Source of the DNA: a plasmid
Reading direction: 5' to 3' (one strand)
Length of the DNA: 24,068 nucleotides
Sequence record: NZ_CP116716.1
Under the pieces are notes generated by a model. The model made no database searches, had not been told where the DNA came from, and worked only from the letters and a program-made list of their open reading frames with translations. The position numbers and the translations under genes are program-made. Positions 5,961 through 22,260 of the stretch are shown here, in pieces; position 1 is the first letter of the stretch; every line of letters begins with the position of its first letter.

Positions 5961-6636
5961 GGACTACGGCCTCCAATACCTTTTTGGCCTCGTTGCGCCA
6001 CCGCGTAAGCTCCGCACGGTTGCCAATGGGTAATTCCTTGAGTGCTACCGCAATGCTCATGCGCTTGCTGTAAATGTCATCGCTCACACGGTCGGCCATG
6101 TCCGGGAATGTCACCGATTTCCCGCCGCGTTCCTCTACCGCCGTGCGCAGCTTGGAGCCGTTGTAAAGCTCGAACTTATTTTCTTCCCCGAAGTGTCCAT
6201 TGCGTACCACATGAACATCCGCATTCGGAATTGCGTCCATGTATTCCTTGAGCAGTTCGAGGCTATCCCGTTGGCGGTTAATCACCCACAGCGTGACCAG
6301 CTTCCGCTTGAGTTCTTCAAGCGTGCTATTCAGTGTTTCACCGTAGGCGCTCACGCCCTTGTTATTCCGTGCTGCCGTGTTGATTACCACGACGCTATCC
6401 GGCTTGCTATCGCACAAGTTCACTAGCTGAATCCATCCGTCCGCCTCATCCAGATTGATAAGCTCCGTTTCCGTGCTTTCTTTATAGGCCTTCCATACGT
6501 CCGGGTTAGAGGTGTCAGACTCAATCAGCAAGACGCTTTCGCCGCGCTCTTGCAGGTAATCAACCGTTGCCATCGTGACAAGCGACTTGCCAACGCCGCC
6601 CTTGCTGCCACCGATCAGGTAAATGCTTTTCGCCAT
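5953..6636 (-). CDS. TraL/MobD-like P-loop ATPase (IncP Tra1 TraL family).
   Basis: The N-terminus MAKSIYLIGGSKGGVGKSLVTMATVDYL carries a deviant Walker A motif. It resembles RP4 TraL (MAKIHMVLQGKGGVGKSAIAA..., recalled from memory). There is an AAGGAG RBS. Confidence 0.7.
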   Translation of the reverse strand: MAKSIYLIGGSKGGVGKSLVTMATVDYLQERGESVLLIESDTSNPDVWKAYKESTETELINLDEADGWIQLVNLCDSKPDSVVVINTAARNNKGVSAYGETLNSTLEELKRKLVTLWVINRQRDSLELLKEYMDAIPNADVHVVRNGHFGEENKFELYNGSKLRTAVEERGGKSVTFPDMADRVSDDIYSKRMSIAVALKELPIGNRAELTRWRNEAKKVLEAVVHE

Positions 6637-6648
6637 GTTGCTTACTCC

Positions 6649-7005
6649 TTAAATGTCGTCGCTGTCAGGTTTCGGGGTGAATGTCGCCTTTGATGTATCC
6701 GCAGGCTTCTTGACGGCGGGGCGGGGGCGGGGTGTGTCTCCCGGTGCTTGCACCGGAGCTTTTTTCGCTGGCTTTGCTCTCTGCAGGTAGCTCTTGAGTG
6801 TTGGAGTTGCGATGCTCAGACCTTCACCGCGCAGCGTCTCGGAAATCTGGTCAAGCGTGTATCCACGCTTTTGCAACAAGGCGATTTCCTTCGAGAGTAT
6901 GCGCACGGCATCTTGCTTGCTGTGCTCTTGCTTCTTTTTCTCGACTGGCGGCATCTCTCGCAGCTTTGCAGCGATAGCCTCTAGCTGTTCTGTCGTGCAC
7001 TTCAT
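6649..7005 (-). CDS. TraK/MobC-like oriT-binding accessory protein (putative).
   Basis: 118 aa counted from ATG at 7005, which has an AAGGAG RBS. The C-terminal Pro/Lys-rich tail '...TPKPDSDDI' and the overall architecture resemble IncP TraK. It is the first gene of the operon that diverges from the relaxase operon. Confidence 0.55.
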   Translation of the reverse strand: MKCTTEQLEAIAAKLREMPPVEKKKQEHSKQDAVRILSKEIALLQKRGYTLDQISETLRGEGLSIATPTLKSYLQRAKPAKKAPVQAPGDTPRPRPAVKKPADTSKATFTPKPDSDDI

Positions 7006-11390: not shown

Positions 11391-11490
11391 TGTCATTTTC
11401 AGAAGACGACTGCACCAGACAACGCGGTTTGAAGGCTGTTGTGCAGTCGTCTATTGAACGAACAGTATCAGGAGTCCGCTGCACGAATGA
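11391..11490 (+). repeat. Tn402 / class 1 integron IRt-type terminal inverted repeat with internal TniA-binding-like repeats. The outer end is at 11391 and the interior is to the right.
   Basis: The stretch TGTCATTTTCAGAAGACGACTGCAC at 11391-11415 equals the 25-bp IRt of Tn402-family elements. Additional GTGCAGTCGTCT and CTGCAC repeats lie downstream. Confidence 0.8.
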
Positions 11491-12381: not shown

Positions 12382-12682
12382 ATGCGTGCGACTTTCATGC
12401 GGGCCTCCTGGTCATTTTGGGTATAGGGAAAATGACCATTGTTTCACGCCTAGCCAAAAAGGGAAGGTTCCCGGTTCAAATGTCGTTTTCAGAAGACGGC
12501 TGCACTGAACGTCAGAAGCCGACTGCACTATAGCAGCGGAGGGGTTGGATCCATCAGGCAACGACGGGCTGCTGCCGGCCATCAGCGGACGCAGGGAGGA
12601 CTTTCCGCAACCGGCCGTTCGATGCGGCACCGATGGCCTTCGCGCAGGGGTAGTGAATCCGCCAGGATTGACTTGCGCTGCC

Positions 12683-13696
12683 CTACCTCTCACTAGTGAG
12701 GGGCGGCAGCGCATCAAGCGGTGAGCGCACTCCGGCACCGCCAACTTTCAGCACATGCGTGTAAATCATCGTCGTAGAGACGTCGGAATGGCCGAGCAGA
12801 TCCTGCACGGTTCGAATGTCGTAACCGCTGCGGAGCAAGGCCGTCGCGAACGAGTGGCGGAGGGTGTGCGGTGTGGCGGGCTTCGTGATGCCTGCTTGTT
12901 CTACGGCACGTTTGAAGGCGCGCTGAAAGGTCTGGTCATACATGTGATGGCGACGCACGACACCGCTCCGTGGATCGGTCGAATGCGTGTGCTGCGCAAA
13001 AACCCAGAACCACGGCCAGGAATGCCCGGCGCGCGGATACTTCCGCTCAAGGGCGTCGGGAAGCGCAACGCCGCTGCGGCCCTCGGCCTGGTCCTTCAGC
13101 CACCATGCCCGTGCACGCGACAGCTGCTCGCGCAGGCTGGGTGCCAAGCTCTCGGGTAACATCAAGGCCCGATCCTTGGAGCCCTTGCCCTCCCGCACGA
13201 TGATCGTGCCGTGATCGAAATCCAGATCCTTGACCCGCAGTTGCAAACCCTCACTGATCCGCATGCCCGTTCCATACAGAAGCTGGGCGAACAAACGATG
13301 CTCGCCTTCCAGAAAACCGAGGATGCGAACCACTTCATCCGGGGTCAGCACCACCGGCAAGCGCCGCGACGGCCGAGGTCTTCCGATCTCCTGAAGCCAG
13401 GGCAGATCCGTGCACAGCACCTTGCCGTAGAAGAACAGCAAGGCCGCCAATGCCTGACGATGCGTGGAGACCGAAACCTTGCGCTCGTTCGCCAGCCAGG
13501 ACAGAAATGCCTCGACTTCGCTGCTGCCCAAGGTTGCCGGGTGACGCACACCGTGGAAACGGATGAAGGCACGAACCCAGTGGACATAAGCCTGTTCGGT
13601 TCGTAAGCTGTAATGCAAGTAGCGTATGCGCTCACGCAACTGGTCCAGAACCTTGACCGAACGCAGCGGTGGTAACGGCGCAGTGGCGGTTTTCAT
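12683..13696 (-). CDS. intI1: Class 1 integron integrase IntI1 (337 aa).
   Basis: Canonical IntI1 sequence ([44 protein letters not shown]...). Confidence 0.95.
13581..13609 (+). promoter_or_regulatory. Cassette promoter Pc, strong variant: -35 TGGACA, 17-bp spacer, -10 TAAGCT.
   Basis: The hexamers are seen directly inside the intI1 5' region. Confidence 0.7.
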
Positions 13697-13770
13697 GGCT
13701 TGTTATGACTGTTTTTTTGGGGTACAGTCTATGCCTCGGGCATCCAAGCAGCAAGCGCGTTACGCCGTGG

Positions 13771-13841
13771 GTCGATGTTTGATGTTATGGAGCAGCAACG
13801 ATGTTACGCAGCAGGGCAGTCGCCCTAAAACAAAGTTAGGC
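13771..13841 (+). promoter_or_regulatory. attI1 recombination site, copy 1.
   Basis: ...GCAGCAGGGCAGTCGCCCTAAAACAAAGTTAGGC, with the core GTTAGGC at 13835-13841. Confidence 0.8.
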
Positions 13842-14016
13842 CTCGCCGAAGCGAAGGTTTGCCACTTGAAGTGTTGACGCCTTTGTTTTAAAGTTTGGCG
13901 TCTATCTTTCTGATTTTGTTGATAAATCAGATTTTTATAAATCATGTTAGGCGTCAGACGCTTTTTGACTTAAACGCATCTGAGGCCGAATTAACGTTAG
14001 CCACCAAGAAGGTGCC

Positions 14017-14817
14017 ATGAAAACATTTGCCGCATATGTAATTATCGCGTGTCTTTCGAGTACGGCATTAGCTGGTTCAATTACAGAAAATACGTCTTGG
14101 AACAAAGAGTTCTCTGCCGAAGCCGTCAATGGTGTCTTCGTGCTTTGTAAAAGTAGCAGTAAATCCTGCGCTACCAATGACTTAGCTCGTGCATCAAAGG
14201 AATATCTTCCAGCATCAACATTTAAGATCCCCAGCGCAATTATCGGCCTAGAAACTGGTGTCATAAAGAATGAGCATCAGGTTTTCAAATGGGACGGAAA
14301 GCCAAGAGCCATGAAGCAATGGGAAAGAGACTTGACCTTAAGAGGGGCAATACAAGTTTCAGCTGTTCCCGTATTTCAACAAATCGCCAGAGAAGTTGGC
14401 GAAGTAAGAATGCAGAAATACCTTAAAAAATTTTCCTATGGCAACCAGAATATCAGTGGTGGCATTGACAAATTCTGGTTGGAAGGCCAGCTTAGAATTT
14501 CCGCAGTTAATCAAGTGGAGTTTCTAGAGTCTCTATATTTAAATAAATTGTCAGCATCTAAAGAAAACCAGCTAATAGTAAAAGAGGCTTTGGTAACGGA
14601 GGCGGCACCTGAATATCTAGTGCATTCAAAAACTGGTTTTTCTGGTGTGGGAACTGAGTCAAATCCTGGTGTCGCATGGTGGGTTGGGTGGGTTGAGAAG
14701 GAGACAGAGGTTTACTTTTTCGCCTTTAACATGGATATAGACAACGAAAGTAAGTTGCCGCTAAGAAAATCCATTCCCACCAAAATCATGGAAAGTGAGG
14801 GCATCATTGGTGGCTAA
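14017..14817 (+). CDS. blaOXA: OXA-10-family class D beta-lactamase (266 aa). It carries Ser at position 73, where OXA-10 is recalled to have Asn. This resembles the OXA-17-type substitution.
   Basis: The sequence is recognised by recall as OXA-10 (PSE-2); no alignment was run. The S-T-F-K active-site motif (STFK) is present. The sequence is AT-rich, typical of a cassette. Confidence 0.9.
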
Positions 14818-14848
14818 AACAAAGTTAGGCATCACAAAGTACAGCATC

Positions 14849-15403
14849 GTGACCAACAGCAACGATTCCGTCACACTGCGCCTCATGACTGAGCATGACC
14901 TTGCGATGCTCTATGAGTGGCTAAATCGATCTCATATCGTCGAGTGGTGGGGCGGAGAAGAAGCACGCCCGACACTTGCTGACGTACAGGAACAGTACTT
15001 GCCAAGCGTTTTAGCGCAAGAGTCCGTCACTCCATACATTGCAATGCTGAATGGAGAGCCGATTGGGTATGCCCAGTCGTACGTTGCTCTTGGAAGCGGG
15101 GACGGATGGTGGGAAGAAGAAACCGATCCAGGAGTACGCGGAATAGACCAGTCACTGGCGAATGCATCACAACTGGGCAAAGGCTTGGGAACCAAGCTGG
15201 TTCGAGCTCTGGTTGAGTTGCTGTTCAATGATCCCGAGGTCACCAAGATCCAAACGGACCCGTCGCCGAGCAACTTGCGAGCGATCCGATGCTACGAGAA
15301 AGCGGGGTTTGAGAGGCAAGGTACCGTAACCACCCCAGATGGTCCAGCCGTGTACATGGTTCAAACACGCCAGGCATTCGAGCGAACACGCAGTGATGCC
15401 TAA
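14849..15403 (+). CDS. aacA4: Aminoglycoside 6'-N-acetyltransferase AAC(6')-Ib.
   Basis: Canonical ...[32 protein letters not shown]...[10 protein letters not shown]. The start is the GTG at 14849 usually annotated. An in-frame GTG at 14795 inside the blaOXA 3' end is also possible. The 5' boundary is TTAGGCATCACAAAGTACAGCATCGTG. Confidence 0.9.
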
Positions 15404-15468
15404 CTTTGTTTTAGGGCGACTGCCCTGCTGCGTAACATCGTTGCTGCTCCATAACATCAAACATCGAC
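15398..15468 (-). promoter_or_regulatory. attI1 recombination site, copy 2 (inverted). Its core GCCTAAC overlaps the aacA4 stop codon.
   Basis: The reverse complement of 15398-15430 is GGGCAGTCGCCCTAAAACAAAGTTAGGC. Confidence 0.8.
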
Positions 15469-15542
15469 CCACGGCGTAACGCGCTTGCTGCTTGGATGCC
15501 CGAGGCATAGACTGTACCCCAAAAAAACAGTCATAACAAGCC

Positions 15543-16556
15543 ATGAAAACCGCCACTGCGCCGTTACCACCGCTGCGTTCGGTCAAGGTTCTGGACCAGT
15601 TGCGTGAGCGCATACGCTACTTGCATTACAGCTTACGAACCGAACAGGCTTATGTCCACTGGGTTCGTGCCTTCATCCGTTTCCACGGTGTGCGTCACCC
15701 GGCAACCTTGGGCAGCAGCGAAGTCGAGGCATTTCTGTCCTGGCTGGCGAACGAGCGCAAGGTTTCGGTCTCCACGCATCGTCAGGCATTGGCGGCCTTG
15801 CTGTTCTTCTACGGCAAGGTGCTGTGCACGGATCTGCCCTGGCTTCAGGAGATCGGAAGACCTCGGCCGTCGCGGCGCTTGCCGGTGGTGCTGACCCCGG
15901 ATGAAGTGGTTCGCATCCTCGGTTTTCTGGAAGGCGAGCATCGTTTGTTCGCCCAGCTTCTGTATGGAACGGGCATGCGGATCAGTGAGGGTTTGCAACT
16001 GCGGGTCAAGGATCTGGATTTCGATCACGGCACGATCATCGTGCGGGAGGGCAAGGGCTCCAAGGATCGGGCCTTGATGTTACCCGAGAGCTTGGCACCC
16101 AGCCTGCGCGAGCAGCTGTCGCGTGCACGGGCATGGTGGCTGAAGGACCAGGCCGAGGGCCGCAGCGGCGTTGCGCTTCCCGACGCCCTTGAGCGGAAGT
16201 ATCCGCGCGCCGGGCATTCCTGGCCGTGGTTCTGGGTTTTTGCGCAGCACACGCATTCGACCGATCCACGGAGCGGTGTCGTGCGTCGCCATCACATGTA
16301 TGACCAGACCTTTCAGCGCGCCTTCAAACGTGCCGTAGAACAAGCAGGCATCACGAAGCCCGCCACACCGCACACCCTCCGCCACTCGTTCGCGACGGCC
16401 TTGCTCCGCAGCGGTTACGACATTCGAACCGTGCAGGATCTGCTCGGCCATTCCGACGTCTCTACGACGATGATTTACACGCATGTGCTGAAAGTTGGCG
16501 GTGCCGGAGTGCGCTCACCGCTTGATGCGCTGCCGCCCCTCACTAGTGAGAGGTAG
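15543..16556 (+). CDS. intI1: Class 1 integron integrase IntI1, second copy.
   Basis: The 337-aa translation is identical to the first copy. Confidence 0.95.
15630..15658 (-). promoter_or_regulatory. Second PcS promoter (mirror copy). It is oriented antisense to aacA4 and blaOXA.
   Basis: Mirror position of Pc within the inverted 5'-CS copy. Confidence 0.6.
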
Positions 16557-16758
16557 GGCAGCGCAAGTCAATCCTGGCGGATTCACTACCCCTGCGCGAA
16601 GGCCATCGGTGCCGCATCGAACGGCCGGTTGCGGAAAGTCCTCCCTGCGTCCGCTGATGGCCGGCAGCAGCCCGTCGTTGCCTGATGGATCCAACCCCTC
16701 CGCTGCTATAGTGCAGTCGGCTTCTGACGTTCAGTGCAGCCGTCTTCTGAAAACGACA

Positions 16759-17109
16759 ATGGAGGTGGTAGCCGAGGGTGTGGAAACACCCGACTGCCTT
16801 GCGTGGTTGCGGCAGGCGGGTTGCGACACGGTGCAGGGTTTCCTGTTCGCCAGGCCGATGCCGGCGGCGGCCTTCGTCGGCTTCGTCAACCAATGGAGGA
16901 ACACCACCATGAACGCCAATGAACCGAGCACCAGTTGCTGCGTGTGCTGCAAGGAAATCCCGCTCGATGCCGCCTTCACGCCGGAAGGGGCCGAGTACGT
17001 GGAGCATTTCTGCGGGCTGGAGTGCTATCAGCGCTTCCAGGCGCGGGCCAGCACTGCGACCGAAACCAGCGTCAAACCGGACGCTTGTGATTCGCCGCCG
17101 TCAGGTTGA
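16759..17109 (+). CDS. tnpM: TnpM, the C-terminal EAL-domain fragment of urf2, as in Tn21.
   Basis: [35 protein letters not shown]... starts immediately after IRi. Confidence 0.8.
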
Positions 17110-17238
17110 GGCATACCCTAACCGGATGTCAGGTTAAGCCATTTGGAAGCGTCAGAATAGAGCCATGTTTCCAATTTCTTGACGGCTGCCGCACAAGGCC
17201 ATAGATTCCTTCCTGACACTTTCAGCTCGGGAGGCATC
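17110..17238 (+). promoter_or_regulatory. res site of the Tn21-subfamily transposon.
   Basis: The position between tnpM and tnpR is the expected one. TGTCAGGTTAAGC and CGTCAGAATAG-type subsite sequences are present. Confidence 0.6.
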
Positions 17239-17799
17239 TTGCAAGGGCATCGCATCGGTTACGTCCGCGTCAGTAGCTTCGACCAGAACCCGGAACGGCA
17301 GCTCGAACACGTCCCGGTGGACAAGGTGTTCACCGACAAGGCGTCGGGCAAGGACACGCAGCGCCCGCAGCTCGACGCGCTGCTCGCCTTCGTGCGCGAG
17401 GGCGACACGGTGGTGGTGCACAGCATGGACCGCCTGGCGCGCAACCTGGACGACCTGCGCCGCCTGGTACAGGGGCTTACCCGGCGCGGCGTGCGCATCG
17501 AGTTCGTGAAGGAATGCCTGACCTTCACCGGTGAGGACTCGCCGATGGCGAACCTGATGCTGTCGGTGATGGGCGCGTTCGCCGAGTTCGAACGCGCCCT
17601 GATCCGCGAACGTCAGCGCGAGGGCATTGCGCTCGCCAAACAGCGCGGAGCCTACCGGGGCCGCAAGAAGGCCCTCGCGCCTGAGCGGGTGGCCGACTTG
17701 CGCCGCCGCGCTGCCGCTGGCGAGAAGAAGGCGCAGCTCGCCCGCGAGTTCGGCATCAGCCGAGAAACCTTGTACCAGTATCTGAGAACGGATGACTGA
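17239..17799 (+). CDS. tnpR: Tn501/Tn1721-type resolvase TnpR.
   Basis: [23 protein letters not shown]... with a TTG start after a GGGAGG RBS. Confidence 0.9.
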
Positions 17800-17801
17800 C
17801 C

Positions 17802-20771
17802 ATGCCTCGCCGCAATTTGCTGACGCCCGCCGAGCGCACCAGCCTGCTTGCCTTCCCGGCTACTGACGATGAATTCATCCAGCATTACACCTTCTCCGAG
17901 TCCGACCTGTCGGTGATTCGCCAGCGGCGCGGCAGCCACAACCGGCTCGGCTTCGCGGTGCAGTTGTGCTACCTGCGCTACCCCGGCTTTGCCCTGCCGA
18001 CTGACGCGGAGCCGCCCGCCTCCCTGCTGAAGATCGTCGGTCGCCAGTTGCGCATCGAGCCGGACATTTGGTCGCAGTATGCGCAGCGGCCTGAAACCCG
18101 GCGCGAGCACCTGTTGGAGTTGCAAGCGTGGCTGAAACTGACGCCGTTCGCTGTCGCCGACTATCGGCACTTCGTTCACCAGCTCGCCGAACTGGCCCAG
18201 CAGACCGACCGGGGTATCGTGCTGGCCGAGGCGCTGGTCGAGTTGCTACGGCAACAACGCATCATCCTACCGACCGTCGATGTCATCGAGCGCGTGTGCA
18301 GCGAGGCGCTTACGCGCGGCACACGCCTGGTCTACGAAACGCTCACCGCGCCGCTCGGCGATTTCCACCGCCGTGCGCTCGACGGGCTGCTGGCGATCCG
18401 CGAGGGCACCAAGGGCAGTGGGCTGATCTGGTTGCGCCAGCCGCCCGGCCCACCGAAGCCCAAGCATGTGCTGGCCCACCTGGAGCGGCTGAAAACCATC
18501 CGCGACCTGTCGCTCCCGGACGGCCTGGAGCATGCCATCCACCAGAACCGTCTGCTGAAGCTCGCCCGCGAAGGCGGGCAGATGACGGCCCAGCACCTGC
18601 GCGACCTGGAGCTGAACCGTCGCTATGCAACCTTGGTCGCGGTGATCCTCGACACCCGCGCCACGCTGATCGACGAGATCATCGACCTGCACGACCGTTT
18701 CATGGGTTCGCTGTTCAGCAAGGCCAAGCGTAACCATGCCGACCGCTTTCAGCAGTCCGGCAAGGCGATCAACGACAAGGTGCGGCTGTACTCACGCATC
18801 GGCCGCGTCCTACTGGAAGCCAAGCAGTCGGGCGGCGATCCGTTCGCCGCCATCGAGGCGATCATCTCTTGGGATGCGTTCAGCGAAAGCATTACCGAAG
18901 CGGAAACGCTCGCCCGGCCGGAAGACTTCGATTTCCTGTCCCTGGTCGGCGACGGCTTCACCCAGCTCCGGCGTTACACGCCGGCCCTGCTGGACGCGCT
19001 GACCATGAAGGCTGCGCCGGCAGCGCGCGAACTGCTGTCCGGCGTCGAAGTGCTCAAAGGGATGAACTTCCGCCAAGCGCGCAAGGTGCCGGACGACGCG
19101 CCCACGTCGTTCGTGCGCAAGCGCTGGGAAAGCCTAGTGCGCACGGAAGATGGGCTTGACCGGCGCTTCTACGAGCTTTGCGTTCTGTCCGAGCTGAAGA
19201 ACTCACTGCGCTCCGGCGACATCTGGGTCCAGGGCTCGCGTCAGTTCAAGGATTTCGAGGACTACCTTTTGCCACCGCCGCGATTCGCGGCGCAGCGTGA
19301 CCAGCGGGAATTGGGCCTGGCTGTCGATACCGACTGCGACCGCTTTCTGGACGCTCGTCTTGCGGTGCTGCAAGAGCAACTGGCGACAGCCGAGCGGCTC
19401 GCCGCTGCCAACGAACTACCCGATGCAGCCATCACGAGCACCGGGCGAATCAAGATTACGCCGCTGGACAATGCCGTGCCGGATGAGGCCAAAGCGTTGA
19501 TGCAGCAGGCATACAGCTTGCTGCCGCACCTGAAGATCACCGAGCTGCTGCTGGAAGTCGATGGCTGGATCGGCTTTAGCCGCCACTTCAAGCACCTCAA
19601 GAGCGGCGCGACGGCCGAAGACCAGCACCTGTTGCTGACGACCATCCTTGCCGATGCCATCAACTTGGGCCTCTCCAAGATGGCTGAGTCCTGCCCTGGT
19701 GTGACCTACGCCAAGCTGACGTGGTTGCAGGCGTGGCACATCCGCGACGAAACCTATTCGGCGGGTCTGGCCGAGCTGGTCAACGCCCAGTTCCGCCAAC
19801 CCTTCGCCGCCTACTGGGGCGATGGCACCACGTCGTCATCGGACGGCCAGAACTTCAAGGCCGGCGGCCGTGGCCAAGCTGCCGGCCAAGTGAACCTGAA
19901 GTACGGTCAGGAGCCGGGCGTGCAGTTCTACACCCACATCTCCGACCAGTACGCGCCATTTCACACCAAGGTCATCAATGCCACGGTGCGCGACGCTACC
20001 CACGTCCTGGACGGGCTGCTGTATCACGAATCTGACCTGCGCATCGAGGAGCACTACACCGACACAGCCGGCTTCACCGATCACCTGTTTGCGCTGATGC
20101 ACCTCTTGGGCTTCCGCTTCGCCCCTCGCATCCGCGATCTGGCCGACAAGCGCCTATATATCCACGGCGACGCCAAACAGTACCCGACGCTCGCCGGTTT
20201 GATCGGTGGCAACGTCAACGTGAAGCACATTCGCGCCCATTGGGATGAAATCCTGCGGCTGGCAGCCTCGATCAAGCAGGGCACGGTGACGGCCTCGCTG
20301 ATGCTCCGAAAGCTCGGCAGCTATCCGCGCCAGAACGGCCTGGCCGTGGCCTTGCGCGAGCTGGGGCGCATCGAGCGCACGCTGTTCGCGCTCGACTGGA
20401 TGCAGAACGTCCAGTTGCGCCGCCGCGTGCAGATCGGTCTGAACAAGGGGGAGGCCAAGAACGCGCTGGCCCGAGCCGTGTTCCTGAACCGGCTCGGTGA
20501 AATCCGTGACCGCAGTTTCGAGAACCAGCGCTACCGCGCGAGCGGCCTCAACCTAGTGGTGGCGGCGATCATCCTGTGGAACACGGTTTACCTGGAACGG
20601 GCAGTCCAGGCGCTGCGCGACTCGGGCAAGAACATCGACAAGGGGCTGCTACCGCATCTTTCGCCGCTGGGCTGGGAGCACATCAACCTGACCGGCGATT
20701 ACATCTGGCGGCAGAACAAGCAGGTCGAGCAAGGCAAGTTCCGGCCGCTACGAATGCTTGCCGAAGCTTAG
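17802..20771 (+). CDS. tnpA: Tn3-family (Tn21 subgroup) transposase TnpA, 989 aa.
   Basis: Full-length ORF ending inside the 38-bp IR (...[11 protein letters not shown]). Confidence 0.95.
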
Positions 20772-20804
20772 CGTACGATTTTTTCCGTTTCGTGAGCTGA
20801 CCCC
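20767..20804 (-). repeat. 38-bp terminal inverted repeat of a Tn501/Tn1721/Tn1696-like transposon.
   Basis: CTTAGCGTACGATTTTTTCCGTTTCGTGAGCTGACCCC. Its inner 21 bp are identical to the Tn501-type IR. Confidence 0.85.
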
Positions 20805-20805
20805 T

Positions 20806-20916
20806 ATTTGTCCCCGCTGGGGTGGGAGCATATCAACCTGACCGGCGATTACCTATGGCGCAGCAGTGCCAAGGTCGGTGCGGGGAAGTTCAGGCCATTG
20901 CGACCGCTGCCACCGG
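20806..20916 (+). pseudogene. Remnant of the Tn21 tnpA 3' end (...[36 protein letters not shown]).
   Basis: It is a second, divergent copy of the tnpA C-terminal coding sequence. It lies directly after the 38-bp IR and reads into the Tn21-type IR. Confidence 0.7.
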
Positions 20917-20933
20917 CTTAGCGTGCTTTATTT
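20917..20933 (-). repeat. Tn21 IRtnp, inner 17 bp, separated from the remainder by an IS insertion.
   Basis: CTTAGCGTGCTTTATTT. Confidence 0.8.
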
Positions 20934-22260
20934 AATGAGATGGTCACTCCCTCCTTCCCAGTACTATGCTGAGGACAGGCTTTCATTCGGAGAACCATCA
21001 TGGAAAACATTGCGCTTATTGGTATCGATCTGGGTAAGAACTCTTTCCATATTCATTGTCAGGATCATCGTGGGAAGGCCGTTTACCGTAAAAAATTCAC
21101 CCGACCAAAGCTAATCGAATTTCTGGCGACATGCCCAGCAACAACCATCGCGATGGAAGCCTGTGGCGGTTCTCACTTTATGGCACGCAAGCTGGCAGAG
21201 TTAGGGCATTTTCCAAAGCTGATATCACCGCAATTTGTCCGCCCATTCGTTAAAAGCAACAAAAATGACTTCGTTGATGCTGAAGCTATCTGTGAAGCAG
21301 CATCACGTCCATCTATGCGTTTCGTGCAGCCCAGAACCGAATCTCAGCAGGCAATGCGAGCTCTGCATCGTGTCCGTGAATCCCTGGTTCAGGATAAGGT
21401 GAAAACAACTAATCAGATGCATGCTTTTCTGCTGGAATTTGGTATCAGCGTTCCGCGAGGTGCTGCCGTTATTAGTCGACTGAGTACCCTTCTTGAGGAC
21501 AGTAGTTTGCCTCTTTATCTCAGCCAGTTACTGCTGAAATTACAACAGCATTATCACTATCTTGTTGAGCAGATTAAAGATCTGGAATCTCAGTTGAAAC
21601 GAAAGTTGGACGAAGATGAGGTTGGACAGCGCTTGCTGAGTATTCCCTGCGTTGGAACGCTGACTGCCAGTACTATTTCAACTGAGATTGGCGACGGGAA
21701 GCAGTACGCCAGCAGCCGTGACTTTGCGGCGGCAACAGGGCTGGTACCCCGACAGTACAGCACGGGAGGTCGGACGACATTGTTAGGGATTAGCAAGCGG
21801 GGCAACAAAAAGATCCGAACTTTGTTGGTTCAGTGTGCCAGGGTATTCATACAAAAACTGGAACACCAGTCTGGCAAGTTGGCCGACTGGGTCAGGGAGT
21901 TGTTGTGTCGGAAAAGCAACTTTGTCGTCACCTGTGCTCTGGCAAACAAGCTGGCCAGAATAGCCTGGGCACTGACGGCGCGACAGCAAACTTACGAAGC
22001 ATAAAGGCAGAAATACACCAGTTTAAACAATCATTCATCTGGTTTTGCGAATACTGATATTGATGATACAAACGGCCCACCGGCCTGTTGAGGAACCTGT
22101 AAAACGGAAAGGCTCGCTGAAGCCGTATATTTTCTGGAGGTTCATCAGGCGCGGAACTCATCGAGGCGCGGGAATAAAATCCCATTCAGACGCCGGATAG
22201 ATTCAAGCAAGCCAACTTATCGTCAAAATCGGTGTTGCAAAAACGGGAGTGACCATAGAT
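20934..22260 (+). mobile_element. IS4321/IS5075-like insertion sequence (IS110 family, IS1111 group), 1327 bp, inserted in the Tn21 38-bp IR.
   Basis: The length is exactly 1327 bp. It contains an IS110-family transposase gene. Subterminal inverted repeats ATGGTCACTCCC / GGGAGTGACCAT are present. Insertion in the IRs of Tn21-family transposons is the hallmark of IS4321/IS5075. Confidence 0.85.
21000..22004 (+). CDS. IS110-family transposase (334 aa).
   Basis: MENIALIGIDLGKNSFHIHCQD... has the typical N-terminal DEDD motif region of the IS110 family. Confidence 0.95.
   Translation: MENIALIGIDLGKNSFHIHCQDHRGKAVYRKKFTRPKLIEFLATCPATTIAMEACGGSHFMARKLAELGHFPKLISPQFVRPFVKSNKNDFVDAEAICEAASRPSMRFVQPRTESQQAMRALHRVRESLVQDKVKTTNQMHAFLLEFGISVPRGAAVISRLSTLLEDSSLPLYLSQLLLKLQQHYHYLVEQIKDLESQLKRKLDEDEVGQRLLSIPCVGTLTASTISTEIGDGKQYASSRDFAAATGLVPRQYSTGGRTTLLGISKRGNKKIRTLLVQCARVFIQKLEHQSGKLADWVRELLCRKSNFVVTCALANKLARIAWALTARQQTYEA

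Follow-up and report, generated by a model that had tools for sequence, protein, structure and literature searches.

OXA-17 has been known since 1999 and has both a solved structure and a published mechanism. In the relevant part of the review PMC4790369, it is defined as OXA-10 with the substitution N73S, citing Danel et al. 1999 and giving GenBank AF060206 as the reference, and in the 2024 structural paper PMC11497580 it is tabulated as the same single-residue derivative of OXA-10 together with the crystal structure PDB 9IXQ. According to the latter, residue 73 lies below the active-site loop L2, and in the N73S enzyme W154 is located farther away and L2 is looser, with K70 still being carbamylated; in vitro, ceftazidime hydrolysis goes up and ampicillin hydrolysis is similar or lower. 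The effect of OXA-17 on ceftazidime is disputed between these sources: the review lists raised MICs for cefotaxime, ceftriaxone, cefepime, moxalactam and aztreonam but not for ceftazidime, whereas the structural paper reports a 4-fold rise in the ceftazidime MIC, which is far below the 128-fold effect described there for G157D.

As regards the genetic setting, an unusual gene cassette designated blaOXA-10-delta-attI1(-11) has been described (PMC12901181). In cassettes of this type, attC is missing from R'' onward, its place being taken by the 11 nt of attI1 that precede the crossover point, and in the portion of PMC12901181 that follows Partridge et al. 2000, their origin is attributed to a recombination event in which attC took part with its R'' and attI1 with its L box. 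A plasmid carrying OXA-17 as well as blaGES is mentioned in a paper on GES plasmids from sewage (PMC10469963), but it is not evidently the plasmid analysed here.

The window, by which we mean the whole 24,068-bp stretch of DNA that was analysed, starts and ends exactly as the complete IncP-6 plasmid NZ_CP115730 does, so it probably represents an entire plasmid. Its features around the beta-lactamase gene are listed in Table 1.

Table 1 Features of the window discussed in the text. Slashes within sequences, here and below, mark boundaries or joins.
Feature	Position	Strand	Remarks
Left 5'-conserved segment (5'-CS)	12481..13841	-	IRi, intI1, PcW, P2 and attI1; promoters directed rightward into blaOXA-17
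IRi, left	12481-12505
intI1, left	12683-13696	-
PcW, left	13581-13609
P2, left	13700-13728		with GGG
attI1 simple site, left	13822-13841
161-bp non-coding cassette-like element	13836..13996	+	between attI1 and the blaOXA-17 cassette; bounds G/TTAGGCC and G/TTAGCC
blaOXA-17 cassette	13997..14824	+	unusual delta-attI1(-11) type; normal 5' boundary G/TTAGCCACC; no attC of its own
blaOXA-17 CDS	14017..14817	+	266 aa; from ORF list, alignment, NCBIfam and exact-sequence look-up
Codon 73	14233..14235	+	AGC (Ser); AAC (Asn) in OXA-10; sole differing base G14234
aacA4 / aac(6')-Ib4 CDS	14849..15403	+	GTG start as annotated in identical records; AAC_6p_Ib (NCBIfam), 432 bits
Inverted attI1 simple site	15398..15417	-	fused directly to what is left of the aacA4 attC, its R'' core; crossover between 15403/15404
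Right 5'-CS	15398..16758	+	perfect inverted copy of the left one; promoters directed leftward, antisense to aacA4 and blaOXA-17
P2, right	15539-15511
intI1, right	15543-16556	+
PcW, right	15658-15630
IRi, right	16758-16734
IS110-family transposase	21000-22004		inside the repeat of the second tnpA-end remnant

Identity of the beta-lactamase gene

The first-pass annotation had taken the product for an OXA-10 variant with serine in place of asparagine at position 73 and had linked this substitution to OXA-17, and both statements were borne out. In the peptide translated from the ORF, the STFK motif occupies residues 67-70 and serine is residue 73. The residue-by-residue alignment with the full-length OXA-10 chain 6skp_A (PDB 6SKP), the top match in a search of all PDB chains, confirmed asparagine as the reference residue at this position, which was the only one of the 266 to differ. 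The next PDB entry, 6skq_A, has two further changes, T26M and V117L, which we take to be those of OXA-655, and this supports 6skp as the wild-type OXA-10. Likewise, the stretch 13836-14817 differs in a single base, G14234 versus A, from its counterpart in NZ_CP115730, in which blaOXA-10 is called by AMRFinder at 100%, and the same single mismatch separates the gene from blaOXA-10 of pPALO532.

The link to OXA-17 agrees with the definitions in PMC11497580 and PMC4790369 as well as with the database matches. The exact protein, looked up among about 15 billion proteins, is named by NCBI as the OXA-10 family extended-spectrum class D beta-lactamase OXA-17, with identical copies on 560 contigs in that look-up and in 844 blocks of the assembly index. 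The 801-bp gene shows 100% DNA identity to blaOXA-17 (WP_032491804.1; AMRFinder 100%) in NZ_CP050076 and NZ_CP137509, carriers of the identical DNA including an Enterobacter kobei plasmid and a P. aeruginosa plasmid, and the identity holds across about 12-13 other loci. Residues 21-265 are 100% identical to 9ixq_A, the crystallised OXA-10 N73S (PDB 9IXQ), and the NCBIfam model NF000386 (blaOXA-10_like) covers residues 1-266 with 623.1 bits, its curated cutoff being 580. All the class D motifs are found at the positions expected for OXA-10, namely S67, K70, S115-A-V117, Y141-G-N143, W154 and K205-T-G207. Residues G157, A124 and N143, at which further extended-spectrum derivatives of OXA-10 are mutated, are those of the wild type; since Gly157 is kept, the protein is without the loop mutation responsible for the 128-fold ceftazidime effect. 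We conclude, with a probability of about 95%, that the ORF is blaOXA-17 coding for an acquired class D serine beta-lactamase of the OXA-10 family which differs from OXA-10 in Asn73Ser only.

The 90% identity cluster holding OXA-17 also contains many GES class A beta-lactamases and has a GES representative, which looks like a clustering artefact.

Based on established knowledge of class D enzymes and on the structural paper PMC11497580, the effect of the substitution is explained as follows. Ser67 of the S67-T-F-K70 motif is acylated by the beta-lactam, with carbamylated Lys70, held by Trp154, acting as the general base. Residue 73 is situated on the helix just under L2, an omega-like loop containing W154 and G157, and the replacement of asparagine with the smaller serine increases the distance to W154 and renders L2 more flexible, which lets bulkier oxyimino-cephalosporins fit with little loss of penicillin hydrolysis.

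The blaOXA-17 cassette and its neighbours

Positions 14809-14830 read GGTGGCTAA/AACAAAG/TTAGGC: the stop codon of blaOXA-17 is followed by AACAAAG from attI1 and then by TTAGGC, the start of aacA4, which is the delta-attI1(-11) signature. In the alignment with the canonical blaOXA-17 cassette of NZ_CP050076, about 90 bp of attC_oxa10 are missing, showing the cassette not to be of the canonical form, and attC_oxa10 had no match anywhere in the window by blastn-short. The cassette therefore belongs to a known unusual type and carries a new allele here. Its junction with the attI1 remnant is identical to the blaOXA-10 junction in pPALO532, NZ_CP115731 and other records, and all seven PLSDB records in which the aacA4-linked junction is matched in a single piece carry OXA-10 with N73 and none carries OXA-17. 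The PLSDB records annotated with OXA-17 are matched in two pieces only, which indicates the canonical cassette, and neither the 161-bp element nor the delta-attI1 junction is present in any of the 13 other OXA-17 loci examined. NZ_CP031216, where the RGI label "OXA-17" could have meant Ser73 in a delta-attI1-aadA1 context, was discarded as its gene is 5'-truncated and lacks codon 73.

The exact 161-bp element was found in one other PLSDB record among those listed, NZ_CP115730, where it is located upstream of blaOXA-10 and is 100% identical; a variant with about 90% identity is present in 244 PLSDB records and is always unannotated. No promoter was detected in the element, and a terminator-like hairpin at 13949-13963 is within chance expectation.

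Downstream, the aacA4 DNA is 100% identical to the pPALO532 gene annotated as aac(6')-Ib4 / AAC(6')-Ib9. From a GTG at 14810, AAC(6')-Ib can be extended in frame at its N-terminus, which gives the AAC(6')-Ib9 form of CARD, and since this GTG overlaps the end of blaOXA-17 including its stop codon (14810-14817, within GGTGGCTAA), translational coupling of the two genes is possible in the fused cassette.

Two inverted 5'-conserved segments

The two arms, each 1361 bp long and running from IRi to the attI1 crossover, form an inverted repeat with 0 mismatches, and the 1556-bp segment between them holds blaOXA-17 and aacA4 as its only genes. Each arm possesses intI1, attI1, Pc and IRi, so the 5'-CS of a class 1 integron is present twice in inverted orientation, and the encoded IntI1 (337 aa) scores 796 bits against the integron-integrase model PRK15417. 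The 3'-CS (qacEdelta1-sul1) of locus L001 found no match in the 24-kb window, the structure thus not being of the clinical sul1-type, and no attC was detected anywhere in the 24,068 bp.

The Pc promoter is the weak variant PcW (TGGACA-17-TAAGCT), and P2 has a 17-nt spacer owing to a GGG insertion. In class 1 integrons, P2 with this insertion is an active promoter. The sequence AAGAAGGTGCC precedes the ATG of blaOXA-17, which is the first coding cassette and, judging from the arrangement of these elements, should be transcribed from the weak Pc together with the activated P2. The promoter and terminator scan of 13500-15700 revealed nothing of the kind beyond shuffled expectation. As identical Pc/P2 pairs converge on both genes, antisense transcription is likely, and the opposing pair could lower the expression of blaOXA-17 and aacA4. 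The GGG is present in P2 of both arms and absent from every related 5'-CS examined (pPALO532, NZ_CP115730, pJF-786 and the contigs L020 and L021), suggesting either gene conversion between the arms or their single origin.

The junction of aacA4 with inverted attI1

The sequence across the end of aacA4 (15393-15417) reads GATGCCTAA/CTTTGTTTTAGGGC, where the R'' core GCCTAA/C is joined to the inverted attI1; the aacA4 attC is absent from the window. With blaOXA-17 and aacA4 both lacking attC, their canonical excision is no longer possible. The join falls exactly on the IntI1 crossover position of both partners (GCCTAA/C). The aacA4-inverted attI1 junction was not found in PLSDB, GTDB representative genomes or JGI metagenomes, no record was found for an ORF across it, and none of the genes called in the assembly index extends across it. 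A short motif of the junction hits ordinary attI1::aacA4 junctions as well (loci L003 and L004), on their reverse complement, and only a longer pattern with CGCAGTGATGCC is junction-specific; the latter was used for the GTDB and JGI searches. The junction is apparently undescribed and so far unique among the collections searched.

The junction may be a non-canonical IntI1 deletion product or an artefact. Under the former reading, two integrons would once have faced each other on a plasmid resembling contig L021, and the R'' core of attC_aacA4 would have recombined with the R box of attI1 of the facing integron. Because both cores are GCCTAAC on the + strand and hence are direct repeats, strand exchange at the usual cleavage position of IntI1 would delete everything between them, in this case presumably both 3'-CS, the remaining cassettes and the other end of the transposon. 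This would leave an immobilised blaOXA-17-aacA4 pair, devoid of attC, between two perfect inverted 5'-CS that converge on it. A simple inversion between the two integrons was rejected, since aacA4 cannot be brought next to the intI1-proximal side of attI1 in this way.

Plasmid backbone and surrounding transposon

In the rep, par and yafQ-recombinase segments, the window shows 100% identity to the IncP-6 contig L021. Just downstream of the replication gene, at 1481-1796, a 17-bp unit (GTAGCGCCTGCCTTTGA) is repeated 18.6 times in perfect tandem order; the repeats are presumably iterons. The region 1207-1877 containing the array has no counterpart of at least 150 bp in NZ_CP115730 by BLAST, and the corresponding gap there is much shorter. 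A 25-bp IRt-like repeat (TGTCATTTTCAGAAGACGACTGCAC), oriented like IRi, is located at 11391-11415, about 1.1 kb further left. Its position relative to pJF-786 places it before the yafQ-type toxin gene and the serine recombinase beside the integron, and it appears to have been left behind by a former Tn402-like insertion.

The right arm is inserted in a gene with an EAL domain (urf2/tnpM-like) that belongs to a Tn21-subgroup transposon. In the region beyond the arm (16759-22260) there are a fragment of the EAL-domain gene, tnpR, tnpA and the terminal repeat of the transposon. Together with urf2-tnpR-tnpA, the right arm makes up a 5.4-kb block that is 99.93% identical to contig L020. The tnpR-tnpA part reaches only about 85% identity with the nearest full-length PLSDB match, and the same TnpA was found both on IncP-6 contigs and in chromosomes, there in the neighbourhood of flagellar genes. 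The terminal repeat, which ends at 20804, abuts a second tnpA-end remnant whose own repeat is interrupted by an IS110-family element.

Origin of Ser73 and alternative readings

At 6001-6801 of locus L011 (GCA_024234215.1, JACKOQ010000002.1), there is a blaOXA-17 cassette that is complete, has kept its attC and shows 100% DNA identity to the gene of the window. The contig, 499 kb long, belongs to an uncharacterised environmental gammaproteobacterium, and the cassette lies on it between genes for an FAA-hydrolase and a glyoxalase. No integron was found within 6 kb of the cassette, and the nearest relatives of a flanking gene are only 57-59% identical. This cassette is either an insertion at a secondary (attG-like) site or part of a chimeric contig. 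The possibility that it represents a native progenitor with Ser73 as the ancestral residue was rejected, as the complete DNA identity, the mobile cassette boundaries and the retained attC point to a recent insertion.

In the window, both flanks of the gene, i.e. the rare variant of the 161-bp element and the delta-attI1-aacA4 fusion, are known elsewhere only with OXA-10. The presence of Ser73 on a background that is otherwise Asn73 suggests an independent A-to-G mutation, which we favour, or gene conversion. Canonical cassettes of blaOXA-17 are found widely among integrons of the same bacterial communities, including those of wastewater Enterobacter and Pseudomonas, so a donor for copying Ser73 by homologous recombination or gene conversion could have been available in the same cell, and with the 801-bp genes being otherwise identical the conversion tracts would be traceless. 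Nevertheless, given these flanks, such a transfer would need two crossovers inside the gene, and a single A-to-G transition under cephalosporin selection is a simpler event, which makes the transfer possible but rather unlikely. It might also be supposed that the plasmid truly carries blaOXA-10 and that G14234 is a sequencing or consensus error, as one base separates the alleles and N73 is found in all other records with the same flanks (NZ_CP115730 for the 161-bp variant and the seven PLSDB records for the fusion). This is hardly credible, however, as OXA-17 is common and well documented, the change is exactly the known A-to-G transition, site 14234 lies outside any homopolymer, and the mismatch-free 1361-bp arms point to a clean consensus.

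The face-to-face copies of intI1-attI1 around the two genes could themselves be an assembly artefact, in keeping with the absence of the junction from the three collections and of any called gene spanning it. Moreover, the last 12 nt of aacA4 (GTGATGCCTAAC) recur, as the reverse complement, at the start of the aacA4 cassette. Such an inverted microhomology could give rise to chimeric joins, which makes an artefact or a non-enzymatic origin conceivable. We nonetheless regard an artefact as quite improbable, as the join is located precisely at the IntI1 crossover of both partners, the outer flanks are distinct and each is found in real relatives (L021 for the left arm and L020 for the right one), the window closes as a complete IncP-6 plasmid with ends matching the related record NZ_CP115730, and the total loss of 3'-CS and attC fits a single deletion. 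The chances seem even that the junction is the product of a non-canonical IntI1 reaction and that, in addition, Ser73 arose independently on the OXA-10-delta-attI1 cassette and does not descend from the classical OXA-17 cassette. As to the consequences for the host, expression of the gene and extended-spectrum resistance are predicted here from the sequence. The intact blaOXA-17 might add little to such resistance, being placed behind a weak PcW and distal to it because of the 161-bp element, with convergent antisense promoters: PcW and P2 are present in both orientations, face to face across 1556 bp, with no excess of terminators between them. Against this, P2 with the GGG and its 17-nt spacer is an active promoter in class 1 integrons. 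Furthermore, OXA-17 is classed by NCBI as extended-spectrum and the N73S enzyme hydrolyses ceftazidime faster in vitro (PMC11497580), so a merely small contribution to resistance appears unlikely.

Implications

For annotation and surveillance, the gene is to be recorded as blaOXA-17, an extended-spectrum OXA-10 variant, and not as blaOXA-10, which alters the cephalosporin phenotype to be predicted for a small mobilisable plasmid of the IncP-6 type, common in wastewater Enterobacterales, Aeromonas and Pseudomonas. The allele itself opens no new biological question, and its surroundings are of modest value to integron specialists. The OXA-17 substitution on an otherwise OXA-10 cassette background fits the idea that this ESBL mutation has emerged repeatedly, and the aacA4-inverted attI1 junction, if real, would document a natural case in which IntI1 recombined an inverted attI1 with the R'' side of attC.

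Comparison with known systems

The enzyme of the window shares all 266 residues, and its gene the complete DNA sequence, with OXA-17 (WP_032491804.1), the difference being that the canonical cassette has its own attC whereas the window has an attI1 remnant instead. With OXA-10 (PSE-2) it shares 265 of the 266 residues, the fold, the catalytic motifs and the family HMM, and records with OXA-10 also carry the 161-bp element and the delta-attI1-aacA4 fusion; OXA-10, however, has Asn73 and belongs to the narrow-spectrum class, while OXA-17, as in the window, has Ser73 and belongs to the extended-spectrum one. OXA-142 (N73S and G157D), a member of the same family, has N73S in common with the enzyme of the window, whereas in OXA-14 (G157D), also of this family, the residue is changed at which the window keeps Gly157.

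The blaOXA-10-delta-attI1(-11) cassette, as presented in the part of PMC12901181 citing Partridge et al. 2000/2009, has GGCTAA/AACAAAG/TTA after the stop codon and has lost attC at R'', exactly as in the window; the main text of PMC12901181 contains no mention of OXA-17, which is the allele carried here. The sul1-type class 1 integrons of the IncP-6 GES-5 plasmids pJF-786 and pMRY16-414SMA_2 resemble the locus in the backbone position, IRi, intI1, attI1 and Pc, but the window, unlike them, has neither the qacEdelta1/sul1 3'-CS nor attC and ends in an inverted 5'-CS belonging to a Tn21-subgroup transposon. In contig L020, the attI1 corresponding to that of the right arm is occupied by a metallo-beta-lactamase cassette, whereas in the window the same attI1 is joined to aacA4.
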